Positions 39,001-45,000 of a stretch of DNA of 64,000 nucleotides are shown here, piece by piece. The DNA lies in NCBI GenBank assembly GCA_965197905.1, contig CBDAOB010000005.1, positions 864,001-928,000 of the forward strand, read 5' to 3'. Made by a program: the position numbers. The first letter of the stretch is position 1. Every line of letters begins with the position of its first letter. The DNA is from Candidatus Latescibacterota bacterium. GTDB taxonomy: Bacteria > Latescibacterota > UBA2968 > UBA8231.

Positions 39001-42000
39001 TCCGCCGCAGAGCTCGTAGCGGCTGGTCCAGTAGCGCTGCGGTTTGCCACTATAGATTGCGTGGATCAACGCGTGGCGCACCGTGCGCTCCCGTAAGAGT
39101 TCCCGTGCCACGTGGGCGGCGGGCTCGTAGCGAGTGACGAAACCAACCTGGGTGATGATGCCCGCTTTCTGCACGGCCGCGTTGTACTCCAGCGCCGTGG
39201 ACATATCCAGGCTCTGGGGCTTCTCCACGAACACCGCTATACCCTTGTCGGCGGCCATCAGCAGCTCGTCGGTGTGGCTCGTCGGTGGGATACACAGGTA
39301 GAGAGCGTCCAGCTCCTCCCTGTCGAGCATTTCGCGATGGTTGCTGTAGACGGTCCGGGGCTTGTAGGTTTTGACTTGCTTGTCGAGCAGCACCTCGTCG
39401 AGGTCGCAAAAGGACTGGAACACCACTTCGTCCTTCTCCACCAGCGGCGCCAACGCCGGCAGATGAGCCAGCGTAGGGATCTGTCCCAGACCAATAAATC
39501 CAAGTCGTACCGGTTCCATCGCCTCGACCCGTAGAATCCTGCTGGTGCTAGATTACTCCTTGTAATAGCTCGAGCAGGGGAATGTATCAAGCATTCGGAG
39601 GCAGTCCAACAAATTGACGACTGTAGGCATCCAGCAGGGGATCGGACTCGCGTTTGTCGGCGGCGCGTGCGAAGACGACTCCGGGGCAGTTCGCCCGCCG
39701 TGCTCGCGGCAGCAGACCGTAGCCGGAAGGCAGCGCTCGTTCACCCGTTCGCTCCAACTCAAACATCTCTCCCATCACCTCGGCAATGCCCCGTCGAGCT
39801 CCCACGACTCGGGCAAACGCCTCGTGCGGTTCTAACCCCTGCCGCCAACCGTGTCGCGTGGGCACGGTCCTGCCATCGATGTCGGTCGTCGCGATATTCG
39901 GGCCGATCAGCTGGAGGAGCTGCATCGTGTTACCCCTCGCTCCGCTCTTGCAAAGCAGGTTCAGCGGCCCGAATTCGTCGTCGTCGATCTCGTCGCATCT
40001 CGCCAACCAATGCAACGCTTCATCGGTGTAGGACTCCCATTGGTCCCGGTCGTCCTCCTCCGGTGGCGAGGGAAGATCCAGGCTAGTGCCGACGAATGGA
40101 TTCATCGACAGACCAAGGGTTTTGGCTTCTTCGAACCCGCGACGCATCAGGCGTTCGGAGGTCGTAAGGGCCTCCTCCACACCTTTGCGCTCGACCATCT
40201 CGCGCAGCGCATCGACAAGCGGCCGGCGTGTGATGAAGGCGGCACCCTTCTCGATTTTCATGCCGGGGAGTTTTTCGATCTCAGCATGGCCTTCCGGTGT
40301 CATACTCAAGCTGGCCAGTCCCACAACGGCATCCATTCGCGGATCCAGGGAGCTGATCAATTCGGGATTCCGCTCAACCACGGCGCGGATAGATAAGCGC
40401 TGCTCCGCCTCGAGCTGCCCAGCTTTGGTGATCGGGAGAAAAACCGCCATCTGGTCGCCGTCGAAATCCGCGTTCATCAACTCGCAAGCAAGCGGAGGTA
40501 GGCGCAGCGCCCGTCCCGGACACCGAACCGGTCGGAAAGCGAGAAAAGAGGAAATAGGGGAAAGCACCCATCCTGTGTAGACAGTCACCCACGAACCCGC
40601 CAGGAGTTGGTCGAGGGATTCTTCCAGCTCGGGCGTCGGCCTGGTGGGTGCGGTCGAGGGTACGGTTTCGCGAGCGAGCAGCGGGCCGAACAGGGTCCAG
40701 CAGATCTCTTCGGGAAGGCCGATCTGATCGTAGTGCAGTTCAGGCCCAGGGGTGGTAACAGTTCGTCCACTGAACAAGACACTGGCGTTGGGAAGCAAAT
40801 CCTTGGGTTTGACAACCGCATTCAAATAGGCGCCGAGCATCTCTTCGAGGTGTGTCTGCGCACTTTCTATCAAGGCCTTTGGGGCGCTGCTGTCGACCAT
40901 CTGTTGAAGGCGAGAATTGGCCGACTCCAGCTCGGCGTATTCCGGCAGCTCCTCAAGTTGCCCGACCCTCTTCAAACGGTGTTGGCGGAACCATGGGTGA
41001 GGAACGGGAAGCGCAAACTGCAAGCAGGGATTCGGTGGCGACTGGAAGGTCAACCGCAGACATTCCTGTTCGAGGGCAACCTGGATTCCCGCGATCTCCA
41101 GGCGCTGGACGAGTCTTGTAAACGACGGTGCAGGCGGACCTGCCTGTCGCAGCTCTCCCTTGCCGACCTTTTCCGCCAGCGTCTCGGATCCGTCGCGCTC
41201 CGCGGCGCAGGTGTTGAAGAGCTCAGACGCGGTCTCGAGCGCGCCGATGTTCGCCAGCATACCATATTCGTTGGCGCCAACCGTTTGCGGCCGGCCATCT
41301 CCAACCGAGGCATGTATCTTGCCGCGCACATCGTGGATCGTGCGGCCCCAGTAGACCCATCCCGCGGTGCTTGGGCGTTGTAGTCTTTTACCGTTAACGG
41401 TAAGGGTTTCCATGCCGTCGCCGGATATTCCCGCTGTCGTCATTCGCTTGCGGAGCTCCTTCTCGCTCGGCGCCTGAAAAGGAGGCACGATCGCCGGTTT
41501 GCTTTCGGTCTTCGCGATACGACCCATCAACGCTTCCCGTACGACCCCAAAATTCATGCGGGATACCAGGCCGCAGACGCTGTAGATCAGGTCGATGGGG
41601 ACCCCGTTCAGGTGCGGCATCTCTACGTCCGGGAGGATGCACGAGACCACACCCTTCGATCCGTGCCGGTTGGAAATCTTGTCACCTACTTCGATTGGGT
41701 GAGGATCCTGGAAACGGGAAGCCGCCGATTCGCTGAGTACAATCGCATCTTCAAAGGTGTAGCCATCCCAGGAGATAAATGCGGTGAGCAGGTTCCGACC
41801 GCACCAGAATTCCGGGACATCAGGCTCCGCGCCGGTTTGGACCAGAGCCGGTTCTGGTTGCGCCTGGGGGGTCCACTGGCGCATCATATTGGCCCCCATC
41901 AGGAGCCGATTCCCGTCACTGTGTTCGAGAAACGGAATCGCGGAGGCGGACAAACCCAGGTTTGCCGCCGGCGTGTTCTCCACTATTTCCAGGCGACTGT

Positions 42001-45000
42001 CCCGAATCTCTGCCCCCTGTGCGATGGTGAGGATGCGTCCGACGTTGGGCCCTTCGGGGGTTTCGAAGGGGCAGGTGCGGCCGAAATGACCGGGGGTGAA
42101 GACCTTCTTGCGCTCAGGAATCGACACCCGGCGCAGATGTACTTGCCGAGATAACCAGTTTATTTCGACCAGTTCCTCACCAAGCTGCTGGAGGAATTCG
42201 CGAACCCAGTCGGTGATCGGTACCCATGCGGCAGCAAGGGTTTCCTCCCATTGCATCTCTTGCGGTGCGTCTCCCAGGCGCTGCTCAACAAAGTGGAACA
42301 ACTGCTCGCCCACACAGCGAATCTCAGCTCGATCGAGATCGTCCTCGGTGGCTTTCGGAGATACAACAAGCCACCGACCGTCCATCTCGAAAACCCCCTC
42401 GTCATTTGGCTCAGGCACATCGTCATGTTCCACCACGACCTCGCCGTCCTTTCCGCGCAGAACCACCTTGACCCGGCACCTATGATGTCCGGCTGCTTCG
42501 GTATGATATCCCACAAGTGGAATCCGCTCGCTCAGTAATTGCGGCAGCAGTTCCTGGATGAACCGATCCCACGAGGTTTTGTGCCAGGGTGCCCCGTAGC
42601 TCAACTTCATTCGAATTCCTCCCAGTCTATGCCGAGGGCTTTCCACCTTCTGCCGATCTCCCTGCGGCCGTAATGTAAGCGCGATTTTACGGTTCCCGGA
42701 GGTATGCCCAGTTCCTGGGCGACCTCCTTCACCTCCATCTGGGCGTCGTAGATCAAACGCATCACCTCTCGTTTGTCTTCCGGCAGGTCGTCCACGAGAT
42801 CCTGCAATCTATCGCGTACCTCCTTTCGTTCGAGCAGCGTGTCCGCACCAAGCGCAGCCGCATCGACCAACCACACCGGGACGTCGCTTTCATCCTCTTC
42901 AAGATCGAGCCCGGAAGCTTCCAGCGGCTGCTGGCGGCGGCGACGCACGGTGCGGATATGGTTGAGGGCCAGATTGGTGGCTATGCGGTAGAGCCACGAC
43001 AGCAACGATGAACCGCTCCACTGCGCGGAGTGCGACCAGACCCGTAGAAACAACTCCTGGAGCAGGTCTTCGGCCGCACCTCTGTCGCGCACCATCCGTT
43101 GCAGATGGCGAACTAGATCGGTGGAGTATCGTTGATGGAGCTCTTCGAACGCCTTTTCGTCCCGGCTTCGAATGCGCACCATGAGGTCATGGTCAGTGTC
43201 CAAACAACCTCCCTACTGCTCATGACACCGAATGAAACGGAGGGGTTCAAAGAAAAATATAGTATGGTGGGTTGTTGACTCTCTGCCTGGCTGCAATATA
43301 TTGACTACTATAGGTAGTTAATAATCAGGCAAAGGAACTGCTCATTCAGTTGGGCTTGAGCGAATACGAAGCCGGAGCCTATCTCTCCCTCCTGAGCTGC
43401 CAACCAGCAACGGCATACGAACTTGCCAAGGTATCCGGCATCCCGAGCTCGAAAATCTATGAAACAGCCAACCGCCTGGTAGACAAGAAGCTTATCGAGC
43501 CGGTTACCGCCGATAGTGGACGCGGGCAACGCTACATCGCCGTGGGGGCCGAGGACTTTATCTCCATCAAACGCGAGGAGGTTGCGCGCCAGACAAACGT
43601 GCTTGAGCCTCTCCTGAAGGCCGCCAGCAACGGTATGGAAGCGGACTTTATCTGGCAACTGGACGGGGCCGACGGGCTCGAGGATAAAACGCGCCCAATT
43701 GATTCGGGAGGCAGAAGGAACCGTGTTGGCCTCCCTGTGGCAAGCCGAGTTCGATGCCTATGACGACGATCTGCAAGCCGCCGAGCGGTGGGGTGTCGGT
43801 CTCGCCCTGGTGCACTACGGCGCGCCCGCCAGGCGCTTGGGGGCAACCTTTCACCACCCCGTGGAAGAGACGATCCGGCAGGAACGGGGCGGGCGCGGCC
43901 TTACCCTCGTTGTCGATCAACGCTGCGTGGTCATCGCCACTTACTTCGACGACGGTCGCGTGGAAGGGGCCTGGAGCCGAAATCGGGCGTTTGTCTTTGT
44001 TGCCGAAGACTGCGTCCGGCACGACGTCTATATCACCAAGGTTACGGCAACCATGGATGACGATCTCAAGCGCAACTTCGGGGCGGACTACGAAAAACTG
44101 CGTGATGTGTTTCAAGCGGTGGAGCGGGAGTCGTGAAAGCGTGCTGGCTGAACGGATCGCTCGTCGATCCGAATTTAGCCTCGGTTTCGGTCTTCGATCA
44201 TGGGCTGCTTTATGGTGACGGCGTTTTCGAGGGGATCCGCTTCTACGACAAGGTCCCGTTCCGTCTCGATGCACACCTTCAACGAGTCGAGCGCTCGGCC
44301 CGGGCGATCGCCCTCGAGATACGGTATTCGCGGACCGAGCTGGCCAGCGCCGTAGGCGAGACGGTCGCCGCCGCCGGCGAACAAGGTGGCTACATACGAT
44401 TGGTGGCGACCCGGGGTATCGGAACTCTGGGTGTCGATCCGCGATCCTGCCGGGTCGGAACGGTGTTCATTCTTGCCGACAAGCTCGAGTTGGCTGACCA
44501 GGCGGTGTATCGAAACGGAGCACGGGTCATTCTTTCAGCCACGCGCAGGCTCGGCGCCGACGAAATCGATCCGCGCATCAAATCGCTGAACTATCTGAAC
44601 CAGATCCTGGCGCGCATCGAAGCCAACCATGCAGGTGCGGACGAGGCCATCATGCTCAATCGTGCCGGGATGGTAGTGGAAGGTACAGCGGACAACGTGT
44701 TTGTCGTCGCCAACAACCGGCTGCTGACGCCGCCACTGTCAGACGGGGCACTGGATGGAATCACTCGTCAGGTGGTGTTCGAGCTCGCCGACAGACTTGC
44801 GATCCCCTGTGGGGAGGGGAGTCTCGCCCCCTACGACCTGTACAACGCGGATGAGTGTTTCCTCACCGGTACCGGAGCCGAGCTCATTCCTGTGGCGGAG
44901 GTTCAGGGCCGGCGGATTGGTAGGGGAGAACACGCAATCTTCGAACGCTTGCGGTCCGCTTACAGTGAACTGATCAAAGAAGAGACAACCTTGGATCTTT

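Follow-up and report, generated by a model that had tools for sequence, protein, structure and literature searches.

In the window, a 64,000-nucleotide stretch of a Candidatus Latescibacterota contig, we found a conserved two-gene unit that looks like an undescribed, stripped-down transcription machine, with a small sigma factor gene followed by a gene that joins cut-down RNA polymerase beta and beta' in one chain (Table 1). The literature searched, which covered subscription literature in part, held no description of the module. The reading we prefer, to which we give an even chance, is that the two genes form a real operon encoding an autoregulated ECF-type sigma and a catalytically competent, DNA-dependent single-chain RNA polymerase.

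Table 1. Features of the sigma-polymerase module, in positions of the window.
Feature	Position	Strand	Description
Mini RNA polymerase gene	39587..42610	-	1007 aa, ATG start; one chain of cut-down beta and cut-down beta'
Beta'-like half, residues 521-1007	39590..41050	-	Hairpin, clamp helices, part of switch 2, NADFDGD barrel; F region with bridge helix, short C-terminal piece
Bridge helix, residues 928-956	39743..39829	-	Model helix; aligned to the GARKGLAD segment of beta' chains, host beta' included
NADFDGD catalytic loop, residues 713-719	40454..40474	-	Translation and conservation
Clamp-helix coiled coil, residues 556-600	40811..40945	-	Homologous to the beta' docking site of sigma region 2
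Beta-like half, residues 1-520	41051..42610	-	Beta N-terminal remnant, fork region, double-psi barrel, beta C-terminal part
GDKISNRHGSKG, basic active-site motif of the beta barrel, residues 309-320	41651..41686	-	Translation and conservation
ECF-type sigma gene	42607..43203	-	198 aa, TTG start
Purine-rich block AGTAGGGA	43210..43217	-	Family pattern RGTRRRRS, 7-14 nt past the -10
Promoter-like motif TGAACCCCTCCGTTTCATTCGGTGTC	43224..43249 (contig 907224-907249)	-	ECF-type, TGAAC-N15-GGTGTC, upstream of the sigma gene

An earlier note on this DNA had described a 1007-aa beta-beta' fusion with an intact NADFDGD motif, which was borne out by the open frame (39587..42646, minus strand, with the conserved start at ATG 42610), by Pfam and by direct translation. 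Pfam placed Rpb2_3 at residues 149-202, Rpb2_6 in two stretches (best 304-434, E = 1.4e-34) and Rpb1_2 at 688-737. The motifs of both double-psi beta-barrels, which mark a two-barrel RNA polymerase, were read directly from the translation as NADFDGD (DxDxD, 713-719) and GDKISNRHGSKG (GDK..K, 309-320). When aligned with 38 relatives (47-59% identical), D717, G718 and D719 were invariant, as were G309, D310, K311, N314, R315, G317, K319 and G320, while D715 was at least 90% conserved. The NADFDGD, GDK..RHG.KG, fork loop, bridge helix and region F motifs were likewise invariant or nearly so, which we list as support for catalytic integrity and purifying selection, as judged from sequence. An AlphaFold2 model of the chain (pLDDT 89.8, pTM 0.86) matched the fold of beta and beta' chains, with the beta-like half superposing on beta/Rpb2 chains from model residue 1 (430-490 residues aligned, VIA-align Z ~30, rmsd 2.3-2.6 A). 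The best solved relatives were bacterial, beta with a profile E of 9e-75 and beta' with 1e-55, and archaeal and eukaryotic chains ranked behind them. BLASTP against the genome's own 1362-aa beta' gave 29% identity over 213 columns, with 14- and 11-residue gaps after the clamp helices. Our reading is that the protein is a real, probably catalytically competent, single-chain beta/beta' core; motifs and profile alignments agree with the earlier description of a cut-down polymerase whose catalytic motifs are intact.

The mini polymerase is ~38% of the size of a normal polymerase. Profile alignments indicated the loss of the flap, lobe, rudder and trigger loop and of most of the clamp, and comparison with solved chains placed the jaw and zinc finger, as well as the trigger loop and rudder, among the losses of the beta'-like half; the lid also counts among the missing parts. 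For the flap, profile positions 258-297 aligned to chain residues 756-795 and positions 303-518 to 929-1159. Since these two blocks flank a gap, chain residues 796-928 have no counterpart and the flap is absent; the distance from FEDAI to GDK in the mini polymerase is only ~20 residues. Nothing in the polymerase aligned to the trigger loop of solved beta' chains, the model ends 51 residues past the bridge helix, and the tail could be aligned with beta' region H, though not significantly. The profile alignment thus confirmed that the trigger loop and the beta' C-terminal part are absent, as had been proposed.

Because the trigger loop, flap, lid, rudder, lobe and jaw are missing, we would expect a simple, low-fidelity transcriptase without proofreading, like YonO. 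YonO of the Bacillus prophage SPbeta is similarly a single chain of ~100 kDa with two barrels and no trigger loop, and the accessible text of its description reports an efficient DNA-dependent RNA polymerase (PMC5467207), a precedent that by analogy argues for activity of the mini polymerase. YonO has almost no similarity to cellular polymerases beyond the catalytic residues, is phage-borne and has no known sigma, whereas the mini polymerase is plainly derived from bacterial beta and beta', is chromosomal and has its own sigma. Membership in a YonO-like class was rejected on the basis of the strong similarity to bacterial beta/beta', the lack of a phage or plasmid member among the records searched and the ordinary chromosomal neighbors.

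The mini polymerase shares its catalytic motifs, fork loop, bridge helix, switch 3 and clamp helices with the bacterial RpoB and RpoC core, but it lacks the peripheral parts named above and forms one chain, whereas the host open frames are 1266 and 1384 aa. It scored far under every NCBIfam rpoB/rpoC cut-off, and both canonical RpoB (TIGR02013, 166.7 bits versus a cut-off of 801) and canonical RpoC (TIGR02386, 94.6 bits versus 963.5) were rejected. Natural full-length RpoB-RpoC fusions (NF007172 and NF011417, 'subunit beta/beta'') also hold beta and beta' in one chain, but with complete subunits (~2840-2890 profile positions) that are the cell's only polymerase; against these models the mini polymerase reached 154 and 162 bits, compared to cut-offs of 5372 and 4632. 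Canonical rpoB, rpoC and rpoA sit elsewhere in this genome, as previously stated, and an omega-like match fell under the Pfam cut-off (24.6 versus 26 bits). A 1917-aa alpha-beta-beta' fusion is also encoded in the same genome, and other fused polymerase forms occur in metagenomes.

The yeast pGKL2 protein K2ORF6p, a 982-aa Rpb2::Rpb1 fusion, has the same beta-then-beta' order and a length of ~1000 aa, and in the accessible text of its reports it likewise lacks the lid, rudder and most of the clamp (PMC2919709, PMC6211774). It is eukaryote/virus-like and resides on a linear plasmid without a sigma, in contrast to the bacterial-type, chromosomal mini polymerase with its sigma. The available part of one report states that K2ORF6p keeps trigger-loop elements and lacks the clamp coiled coil (PMC6211774), the reverse of the mini polymerase. 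K2ORF6p also depends on a small additional subunit with C-terminal beta' regions; no conserved third gene that could be such a partner lay next to our pair in the immediate neighborhood at 80 loci. In Salmonella phage Arash, according to the accessible text, a non-host beta (Gp206) and beta' (Gp216) also travel with a sigma, Gp10 (PMC10585845), but these enzymes have two separate large subunits and are phage-borne and virion-packaged. Among 50,697 phage records, no close sequence relation was seen.

The upstream gene encodes a sigma with regions 2 and 4 only (Sigma70_r2, 22-88; Sigma70_r4_2, 131-182). It scored 105.6 bits against a cut-off of 42.9 for NCBIfam TIGR02937 (superfamily sigma70-ECF), and among the 25 best of 87 NCBIfam families it reached no subfamily or equivalog cut-off. 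From its regions and the superfamily model, we assign it to the ECF (group 4) type, a classification from sequence. D46, Q49, R54 and W56 were invariant in an alignment of 25 orthologs. The sigma stop and the polymerase start overlap in a shared ATGA, as the earlier note had claimed. The module resembles ECF sigma holoenzymes in the region content of its sigma and in its AAC-type -35 and GTC-type -10, but unlike ECF sigma systems it has no anti-sigma gene beside it: when the ORFs of 100 aa or more from 80 loci were clustered, nothing was shared apart from sigma, polymerase, the antisense shadows of both and genes in synteny among 12 Poribacteria, and there was neither an anti-sigma nor a third conserved gene.

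A gene coupled behind an ECF sigma usually encodes a sigma-binding protein, as in sigma/anti-sigma pairs. By this analogy, the position of the polymerase behind the sigma, together with the missing anti-sigma gene, counts for sigma binding. The same two observations, the retained clamp-helix coiled coil and the finding that most carriers have no strict site besides the module's own promoter would also suit a polymerase that mainly holds the sigma back in place of an anti-sigma, exerting negative feedback by competing with the host core while its catalysis serves another purpose. We consider this improbable; a 1007-aa enzyme with invariant catalytic residues far exceeds what sequestration needs, and the binding itself is putative.

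A search of 8000 scored candidates returned 1023 proteins at E <= 1e-3. The best 119 relatives listed, own protein excluded, were 1001-1068 aa long and 45-59% identical over 99-100% of the query, and all were unnamed, 'hypothetical' or labelled from Pfam domains. Relatives were encoded in 212 of 233 pattern-matching stretches in species genomes, and the 80 loci kept carried the titles Latescibacterota, Poribacteria, Planctomycetota, Chloroflexota, Armatimonadota, Hydrogenedentota and Gemmatimonadota. The recurrence in seven phyla reported previously therefore stands in number, except that Spirochaetales, named then, appears in no title among these loci. In 71 of the 74 loci with at least 700 nt upstream, the sigma was the gene immediately preceding the polymerase on its strand, in line with the earlier claim that the pair recurs together. 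By a tally of offsets, 53 of those 71 had the sigma stop no further than 36 nt from where the polymerase match begins.

Within 168 genomes of Latescibacterota, the polymerase occurred in 66 and a sigma ortholog in 63; comparison of the two lists placed both genes in 62, the polymerase alone in 4 and the sigma alone in 1. The lone sigma (G156) is 371 nt from a contig end. Among the lone polymerases, one is a fragment (G135), one lies at a contig edge (G149), one starts to match at residue 250 and sits in a 957-aa ORF (G146), and one shows a clean deletion of the promoter and sigma that left the last 9 sigma codons (G143). These data support a tight, almost exclusive tie of the polymerase to one dedicated ECF-type sigma, and the linkage and co-occurrence count for dedicated pairing. 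Linkage, coupling and co-loss are also predicted if the sigma is only a switch for the operon.

The spread within the phylum is patchy (16 of 49 genera), the tree shows some mixing of phylum labels, one genome (G071) has two module copies, and distant single-chain beta-beta' fusions occur on viral contigs. Such features would fit a module left behind or used by a mobile element or phage, for instance a polymerase for defence or counter-defence that withstands inhibitors acting on the host enzyme, and not a cellular housekeeping device. This origin appears very unlikely to us. No family member turned up in 50,697 phage or 72,556 plasmid records, none of which covered 80% of the query, viral contig matches spanning most of it were only 22-25% identical, and PADLOC gave no match for the polymerase. 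The GC content of the module (0.56-0.62) is like that of its flanks, the 8 neighbors scanned were ordinary metabolic genes with no integrase or phage gene among them, and phylum labels cluster on the tree (13 changes versus 37.7 in shuffles).

The motif ahead of the sigma gene has TGAAC as the -35 and GGTGTC as the -10, with 15 nt between them. Of 68 upstream stretches, 64 contained TGAAC-spacer-G[GCT]GTC; 60 of these shared a single spacing and the other 4 were shorter by one base. Spacing was identical in 57 of 61 unique promoters. The module's own site was the top PWM match of its genome at 23.1 bits; a reversed-genome control peaked at 23.0 bits, so weaker sites, and with them any weaker second targets in this genome, were indistinguishable from chance. 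A count of the strict motif over 21 carrier genomes from a single genus gave 29 occurrences, 21 of these being the module's own promoter, and the remaining 8 were fewer than the 28 matches in a reversed control. No second strict promoter was found, and in carriers the strict motif is confined, or nearly confined, to a single site. One promoter-like motif thus precedes the pair in seven phyla, as the earlier note held, and it is essentially private, which counts for the operon reading.

In the mechanism we propose, the sigma would recognize this promoter ahead of its own gene, as suggested by the ECF-like architecture and by changes in sigma region 2.3/2.4 in lineages with a different -10. The first rounds of transcription would need the host core enzyme or read-through, and translational coupling would match synthesis of the polymerase to that of the sigma. 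The polymerase would then bind sigma region 2 through its clamp-helix coiled coil, and the resulting two-protein holoenzyme would initiate at the TGAAC-N15-GGTGTC promoter class.

In normal holoenzymes the beta' clamp-helix coiled coil is the main docking site of sigma region 2, and the beta flap is the usual seat of region 4 and sets the -35/-10 distance. The coiled coil is one of the few peripheral elements retained here, with model helices at 556-573 and 578-599 that aligned to beta' 267-309 (E. coli chain row), to chain 8i23_D and to host beta' 265-304. Its survival despite the loss of flap, lobe, rudder, zinc finger, jaw and trigger loop favors direction of the polymerase by the sigma, and retention of D46, Q49 and E50 in sigma region 2.2 would count for docking. 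At the positions equivalent to beta' 275, 295 and 302, which we take to be critical for sigma-70 binding in E. coli, host beta' has R, E and A, the mini enzyme has A, A and M, and the family consensus is a, a and r; this divergence would count against docking. The coiled coil could equally serve NusG. The yeast fusion, which works without a sigma, is reported in the accessible text without the clamp coiled coil (PMC6211774), and by analogy this argues for coiled-coil docking. That the flap is deleted yet the -35/-10 spacing is fixed cuts against a simple sigma-directed reading, and the spacing is as expected if the host core reads these promoters. A module fired only by itself could not start, so something else must fire it first. 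On balance, we judge physical direction of the mini polymerase by the sigma to be about as probable as its opposite.

The main rival is that the sigma serves the host core enzyme only, as an autoregulated ECF sigma whose regulon is this operon. The mini polymerase would then be cargo, acting sigma-free on ssDNA, nicked DNA, R-loops, RNA or foreign DNA, or with another factor. The canonical promoter architecture with its fixed spacing, the deleted flap, the three divergent positions and the start-up problem all fit this explanation. Cargo genes are also tolerated between sigma and polymerase, namely ABC exporter genes in G073 and G107 and, in G080, a gene for a 381-aa protein without a significant Pfam match. 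The promoter-recognition factor of YonO is likewise not identified in the accessible text (PMC5467207). Host-core use alone leaves unexplained why the coiled coil outlasted nearly all other periphery, why a one-operon sigma without an anti-sigma stays with the polymerase (alone in 1 of 168 genomes, at a contig end), and why the two genes are frequently translationally coupled, and we regard it as rather unlikely.

If the sigma does direct the polymerase, the 198-aa and 1007-aa proteins may form the smallest cellular-type sigma-dependent RNA polymerase, a holoenzyme that dispenses with flap, trigger loop, alpha and omega, has a private promoter class and acts as a natural orthogonal 'autogene' on the chromosomes of ~200 species in seven phyla. 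We hold this tentatively, at somewhat under an even chance. It would show how little of beta/beta' suffices for sigma-directed initiation and, together with the 1917-aa fusion and the metagenomic fused forms, that bacteria can hold several polymerase cores.

A further block follows the -10: of the 61 unique sites, 51 have G at +8, 52 have T at +9, and 58-60 have a purine at each of +10 to +13. In this genome the block, AGTAGGGA, overlaps the ribosome-binding site; by our own reading of the aligned rows, a similar block lies past the -10 in five loci with leaders of 45-104 nt.

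The small sigma gene and the mini polymerase gene directly downstream of it were described in the earlier note as overlapping, and their sequences bore this out, with the sigma stop and the polymerase ATG having ATGA in common. The sigma protein is a sigma-70 family factor in which Pfam recognized regions 2 and 4 only. The Pfam domains previously placed on one polymerase chain were likewise recovered (Rpb2_3 at residues 149-202, Rpb2_6 with its best stretch at 304-434, and Rpb1_2 at 688-737). Translation of the gene put NADFDGD at residues 713-719, as proposed, and GDKISNRHGSKG at residues 309-320, and confirmed the positions of the clamp-helix stretch (556-600) and the bridge helix (928-956). 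GC content of the module region is 0.56-0.62, the same as in the flanks. Among the eight neighbours scanned are aminotransferases, an oxidoreductase, a phosphoesterase, and an AcrB-type pump; Pfam matched nothing in three of them, and none is an integrase or phage gene. An inverted repeat, ACTAC..GTAGT, lies between the sigma gene and the divergent TrmB-type gene. This repeat is common to a 91%-identical relative (locus L001) and absent from other phyla.

Coordinates of the sigma-polymerase module, adjoining features, and a third polymerase gene of the same genome (window positions unless a locus or contig is named)
Feature	Coordinates	Strand	Description
Mini polymerase gene	39587-42610	-	1007 aa
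Sigma gene	42607-43203	-	198 aa, TTG start behind GGGAGG
Purine-rich block RGTRRRRS	43210-43217	-	7-14 nt after the -10
Module promoter	43224-43249	-	TGAAC-N15-GGTGTC
Sigma-70-like promoter	43275-43302	+	within TrmB region 43275-43763
TrmB-family regulator gene	43350-43763	+	Pfam TrmB, E 1e-15; divergent from sigma gene
Third polymerase gene	L091:7314-13067 = G000:C3:765313-771066	+	outside the window; one 1917-aa chain

The AlphaFold2 model of the mini polymerase is confident (pLDDT 89.8, pTM 0.86), and by Foldseek and VIA-align it superposes on beta/Rpb2 and beta' chains from bacteria, archaea, and eukaryotes; for the beta half, 430-490 residues aligned with a Z of about 30 and an rmsd of 2.3-2.6 A. 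By profile alignment, the beta half retains N-terminal remnants, the fork region, both barrel halves, and the C-terminal part. It has no counterpart of chain residues 137-460 (the lobe with most of the protrusion), of a 71-residue stretch following the fork, or of chain residues 796-928 (the flap). What remains of beta' in the other half is the NADFDGD barrel, the clamp helices, region F (bridge helix included), the last part of switch 2, a hairpin resembling the one near beta' residue 100, and a short tail similar to region H. This half lacks the zinc finger, the jaw, residues 115-260, and a 25-residue stretch that covers the rudder and the beginning of switch 2. The trigger loop and the rest of the C-terminus, said earlier to be absent, were also left without a counterpart in the profile alignment. 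Two assignments were dropped: PGxVFARAAA..RLFVG as the first trigger helix, this C-terminal piece being placed by HMMER on beta' region H without significance, and LPVPHPW as the lid, this motif aligning with HIELA.PV.HIW, a hairpin around beta' residue 100. At 29% identity over 213 columns to the 1362-aa beta' of its own genome, the mini polymerase is not a recent duplicate of the host gene.

An alignment of 38 relatives showed the catalytic residues to be invariant or almost invariant. This invariant set, together with the retained fork, bridge, and switch elements, suggests that the mini polymerase would be an active template-dependent RNA polymerase. YonO, which works well without a trigger loop according to PMC5467207, provides a precedent for such activity. 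Among 13 runs listed, none was of RNA.

Among 8000 scored candidates, 1023 proteins match the mini polymerase at E<=1e-3. The best 119 of these relatives, the protein itself excluded, are 1001-1068 aa long and 45-59% identical over 99-100% of their length, and none bears a name beyond 'hypothetical' or Pfam domains; NCBIfam likewise holds no model that scores above its cut-off. A search of 1.84 billion representative proteins with the N-terminal 148 residues returned 178 matches, 129 of them at E<=1e-10. Since all full-length proteins with this domain are 943-1101 aa long and carry it at the start, the domain arrangement is constant and peculiar to the mini polymerase family. In structure comparison, the N-terminus still superposes on that of beta.

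A relative is encoded in 212 of 233 pattern-matching stretches (one genome per species). The earlier note proposed a spread over at least seven phyla, and the titles of the 80 loci kept name seven: Latescibacterota, Poribacteria, Planctomycetota, Chloroflexota, Armatimonadota, Hydrogenedentota, and Gemmatimonadota. Within Latescibacterota the mini polymerase is a patchy, accessory gene, present in 66/168 genomes (19/52 of those of high quality) and 16/49 genera. A rough FastTree of 69 rows, which left out the 11 of 80 loci with no ORF of 930-1300 aa, required 13 changes of phylum label compared to 37.7 in shuffles, so that labels grouped far better than chance. Some mixing was seen, of Latescibacterota with Gemmatimonadota and of one Brocadiaceae row next to Chloroflexota. 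End branches of 2.6-3.6 mark five rows (L006, L027, L032, L066, and L077) that are most likely wrong ORF picks and should be disregarded. A mobile or defence origin of the module is highly improbable, as no family member occurs in phage or plasmid collections, the only matches on viral contigs are distant fusions of beta and beta' in a single chain, and PADLOC gave no match for the polymerase. One 8.4-Mb genome of the phylum (G071) carries two full sigma-polymerase modules (C1:1427408-1431180 and 3367482-3371734), with the strict promoter pattern listed next to the second copy only.

The proposed pairing with the sigma gene was confirmed across the family: in 71 of the 74 loci with sufficient upstream sequence (all but L011, L034, and L080), an ortholog immediately precedes the polymerase on the same strand, and for 53 of these 71 a tally of offsets placed the sigma stop at most 36 nt from where the polymerase match begins. 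When the two gene lists for the 168 Latescibacterota genomes were compared, the sigma ortholog was present in 63 and both genes in 62. The one genome with sigma only, G156, has it 371 nt from a contig end. Four genomes have polymerase only: the copy in G149 is truncated by the contig start, G135 holds a fragment of ~300 residues (residues 709-1005; G135:C1:3423480-3424364), in G146 the match begins only at residue 250, within a 957-aa ORF (L096:1003-3876), and G143 has an intact ORF of 1047 aa from which promoter and sigma have been cleanly deleted. Sigma alone was thus confined to that contig end, and most of the lone polymerases are incomplete or cut. At the G143 junction (L095:3980-4102), comparison with close relatives and with the sigma alignment showed that the region preceding their promoter runs directly into the final nine sigma codons. 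The end branch of the G143 copy is the longest in its four-row clade (0.10 compared to 0.034-0.056), and this long branch after sigma loss is a weak hint only. The copies in G143, G146, and G135 belong to one genus and are decaying.

No third partner gene is conserved beside the pair among the neighbour ORFs of the kept loci, and the genes inserted between sigma and polymerase differ from genome to genome. By coordinates, about 13 of the 66 Latescibacterota carriers have a sigma-polymerase gap of 1.3-2.4 kb. The insert is a fused ABC exporter in G073 (L092:2008-3801, 597 aa) and G107 (L093:2033-3793, 586 aa), and in G080 a 381-aa protein with no significant Pfam match (L178:267-1412, minus strand). 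Three possible interruptions may reflect faulty assembly or genuine decay: a single internal stop within codons 1-530 of the polymerase as cut from L036:4928-6517, a sigma gene in two ORFs at L060:5372-5977, and a split sigma gene ~940 nt upstream of the polymerase at L011:4230-5059. A sigma-polymerase fusion was looked for as a Rosetta stone and not seen, the N-terminal domain starting within the first 39 residues wherever a match reached the query start among the 150 best representatives. An apparent 1248-aa open frame at the sigma gene of G106 contains a stop codon and was a false alarm.

Of 68 upstream stretches, 64 contain the promoter motif reported as conserved ahead of the pair, in the form TGAAC, spacer, and G[GCT]GTC; the spacing is identical in 57 of 61 unique sites. 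In these 57, T is favoured at positions 2-4 after TGAAC (44, 30, and 32 sites), and C precedes GGTGTC in 50. The purine-rich block that follows the -10 has counterparts at the same place in L002, L006, L010, L035, L038, and L066. On reading the rows, a similar block was seen in five loci with leaders of 45-104 nt; it is therefore not only a ribosome-binding site and may belong to the start site or the RNA 5' end. Transcripts would be expected to begin about 7 nt past GTGTC. The -10 is changed to GGCGTC in L074-L078 and to CGCGTC in L035, and sigma region 2.3/2.4 in these lineages has THLSLTH or TNCAISQ instead of TNLALNH. This covariation, seen in two lineages, fits a sigma factor that reads its own promoter.

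In a position weight matrix (PWM) scan of the window's own genome, the module promoter was the top match (23.1 bits, the next reaching 20.2), and 24 matches exceeded 14 bits compared to 10 in the reversed-genome control. Because that control reaches 23.0 bits, weaker sites are not recognisable, and the scan yielded no usable second target promoter. The strict pattern matched 29 times in 21 carrier genomes of one genus; 21 matches were the module's own promoter, and the other 8 fall below the 28 of the reversed control. Judged by sequence, the promoter thus appears to be private to the module, as had been claimed.

The mini polymerase takes a place in the operon that usually belongs, in ECF operons, to a sigma-binding protein. 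This operon position, the one-to-one genomic link, translational coupling, and the surviving coiled coil that seats sigma region 2 lead us to infer that the sigma factor pairs with the polymerase. The sigma-less beta-beta' fusion of a yeast plasmid is reported in PMC6211774 to have lost the clamp coiled coil. We see a roughly even chance that sigma and mini polymerase form a productive holoenzyme, probably after a first firing of the module by host core and sigma. Several points count against such a holoenzyme. The flap, the seat of sigma region 4, is missing; at three coiled-coil positions that are important in E. coli, the host has R, E, and A compared to A, A, and M in the mini polymerase; and start-up logically needs another enzyme. 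Together with the fixed ECF-like spacing, which suggests that the promoter is read by a canonical holoenzyme, these points favour a sigma factor that serves the host core only, a reading we nevertheless consider rather unlikely. That the polymerase acts chiefly as a sink for the sigma factor is improbable. Co-folding of sigma with polymerase residues 210-1007, without the N-terminal 209 residues, scored 0.00 in two runs without folded controls, a value with no bearing on binding either way.

Outside regions 2 and 4, columns 150-175 of the sigma alignment form an acidic linker ending PxWMIDAxxLGPD. The C-terminal tail has a nearly invariant W187, a second W in most rows, and then acidic residues (consensus ..W..xxxxxxWE). 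Either the linker or the W tail could be a polymerase contact.

Textbooks describe bacteria as having one RNA polymerase core. If a sigma-directed mini polymerase exists, a conserved second core of ~38% of the size, in one chain and with its own sigma and promoter, would change this picture for several large, little-studied phyla. It would also allow the minimal parts for sigma-dependent initiation to be defined experimentally (whether the flap can be spared and whether the coiled coil suffices) and would serve as a compact orthogonal expression system of two genes and a known 26-bp promoter. The module is directly testable, as both genes are small enough for expression in E. coli and the promoter is known. 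A two-barrel, beta/beta'-derived polymerase is of a known kind; what is new is the minimal single-chain architecture with a dedicated ECF sigma. No description of the family was found in full-text searches of the literature outside subscription journals, or in PMC5467207, PMC2919709, PMC6211774, PMC7824862, and PMC10585845. Rpb1, Rpb2, rpoB, and rpoC do not occur in the text of an ECF classification paper (PMC7826278) or in that of PMC8999054, nor do Rpb1, Rpb2, RNA_pol, PF00562, and PF00623 in one supplement of the former.

The third polymerase gene of the same genome encodes an alpha N-terminal domain (RNA_pol_L, RNA_pol_A_bac), beta, and beta', in that order. Its beta begins near profile position 394 and includes the flap, and its beta' covers positions ~302-1026 of a 1459-position profile. 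No sigma gene was seen adjoining it. Its close relatives number 22 and measure 1227-2003 aa; the alpha part is absent from some, and those that bear a name are called 'hypothetical' or 'beta subunit'. A few longer alpha-beta-beta' fusions reach 2338-2437 aa. Many viral contigs from IMG/VR (L102-L176) encode a protein that matches residues ~159-945 of the mini polymerase at 22-25% identity, the match spanning 3.3-4.5 kb; they are distant viral single-chain beta-beta' fusions. The ESM Atlas holds further fused clusters, with representatives of 1164-1787 aa.
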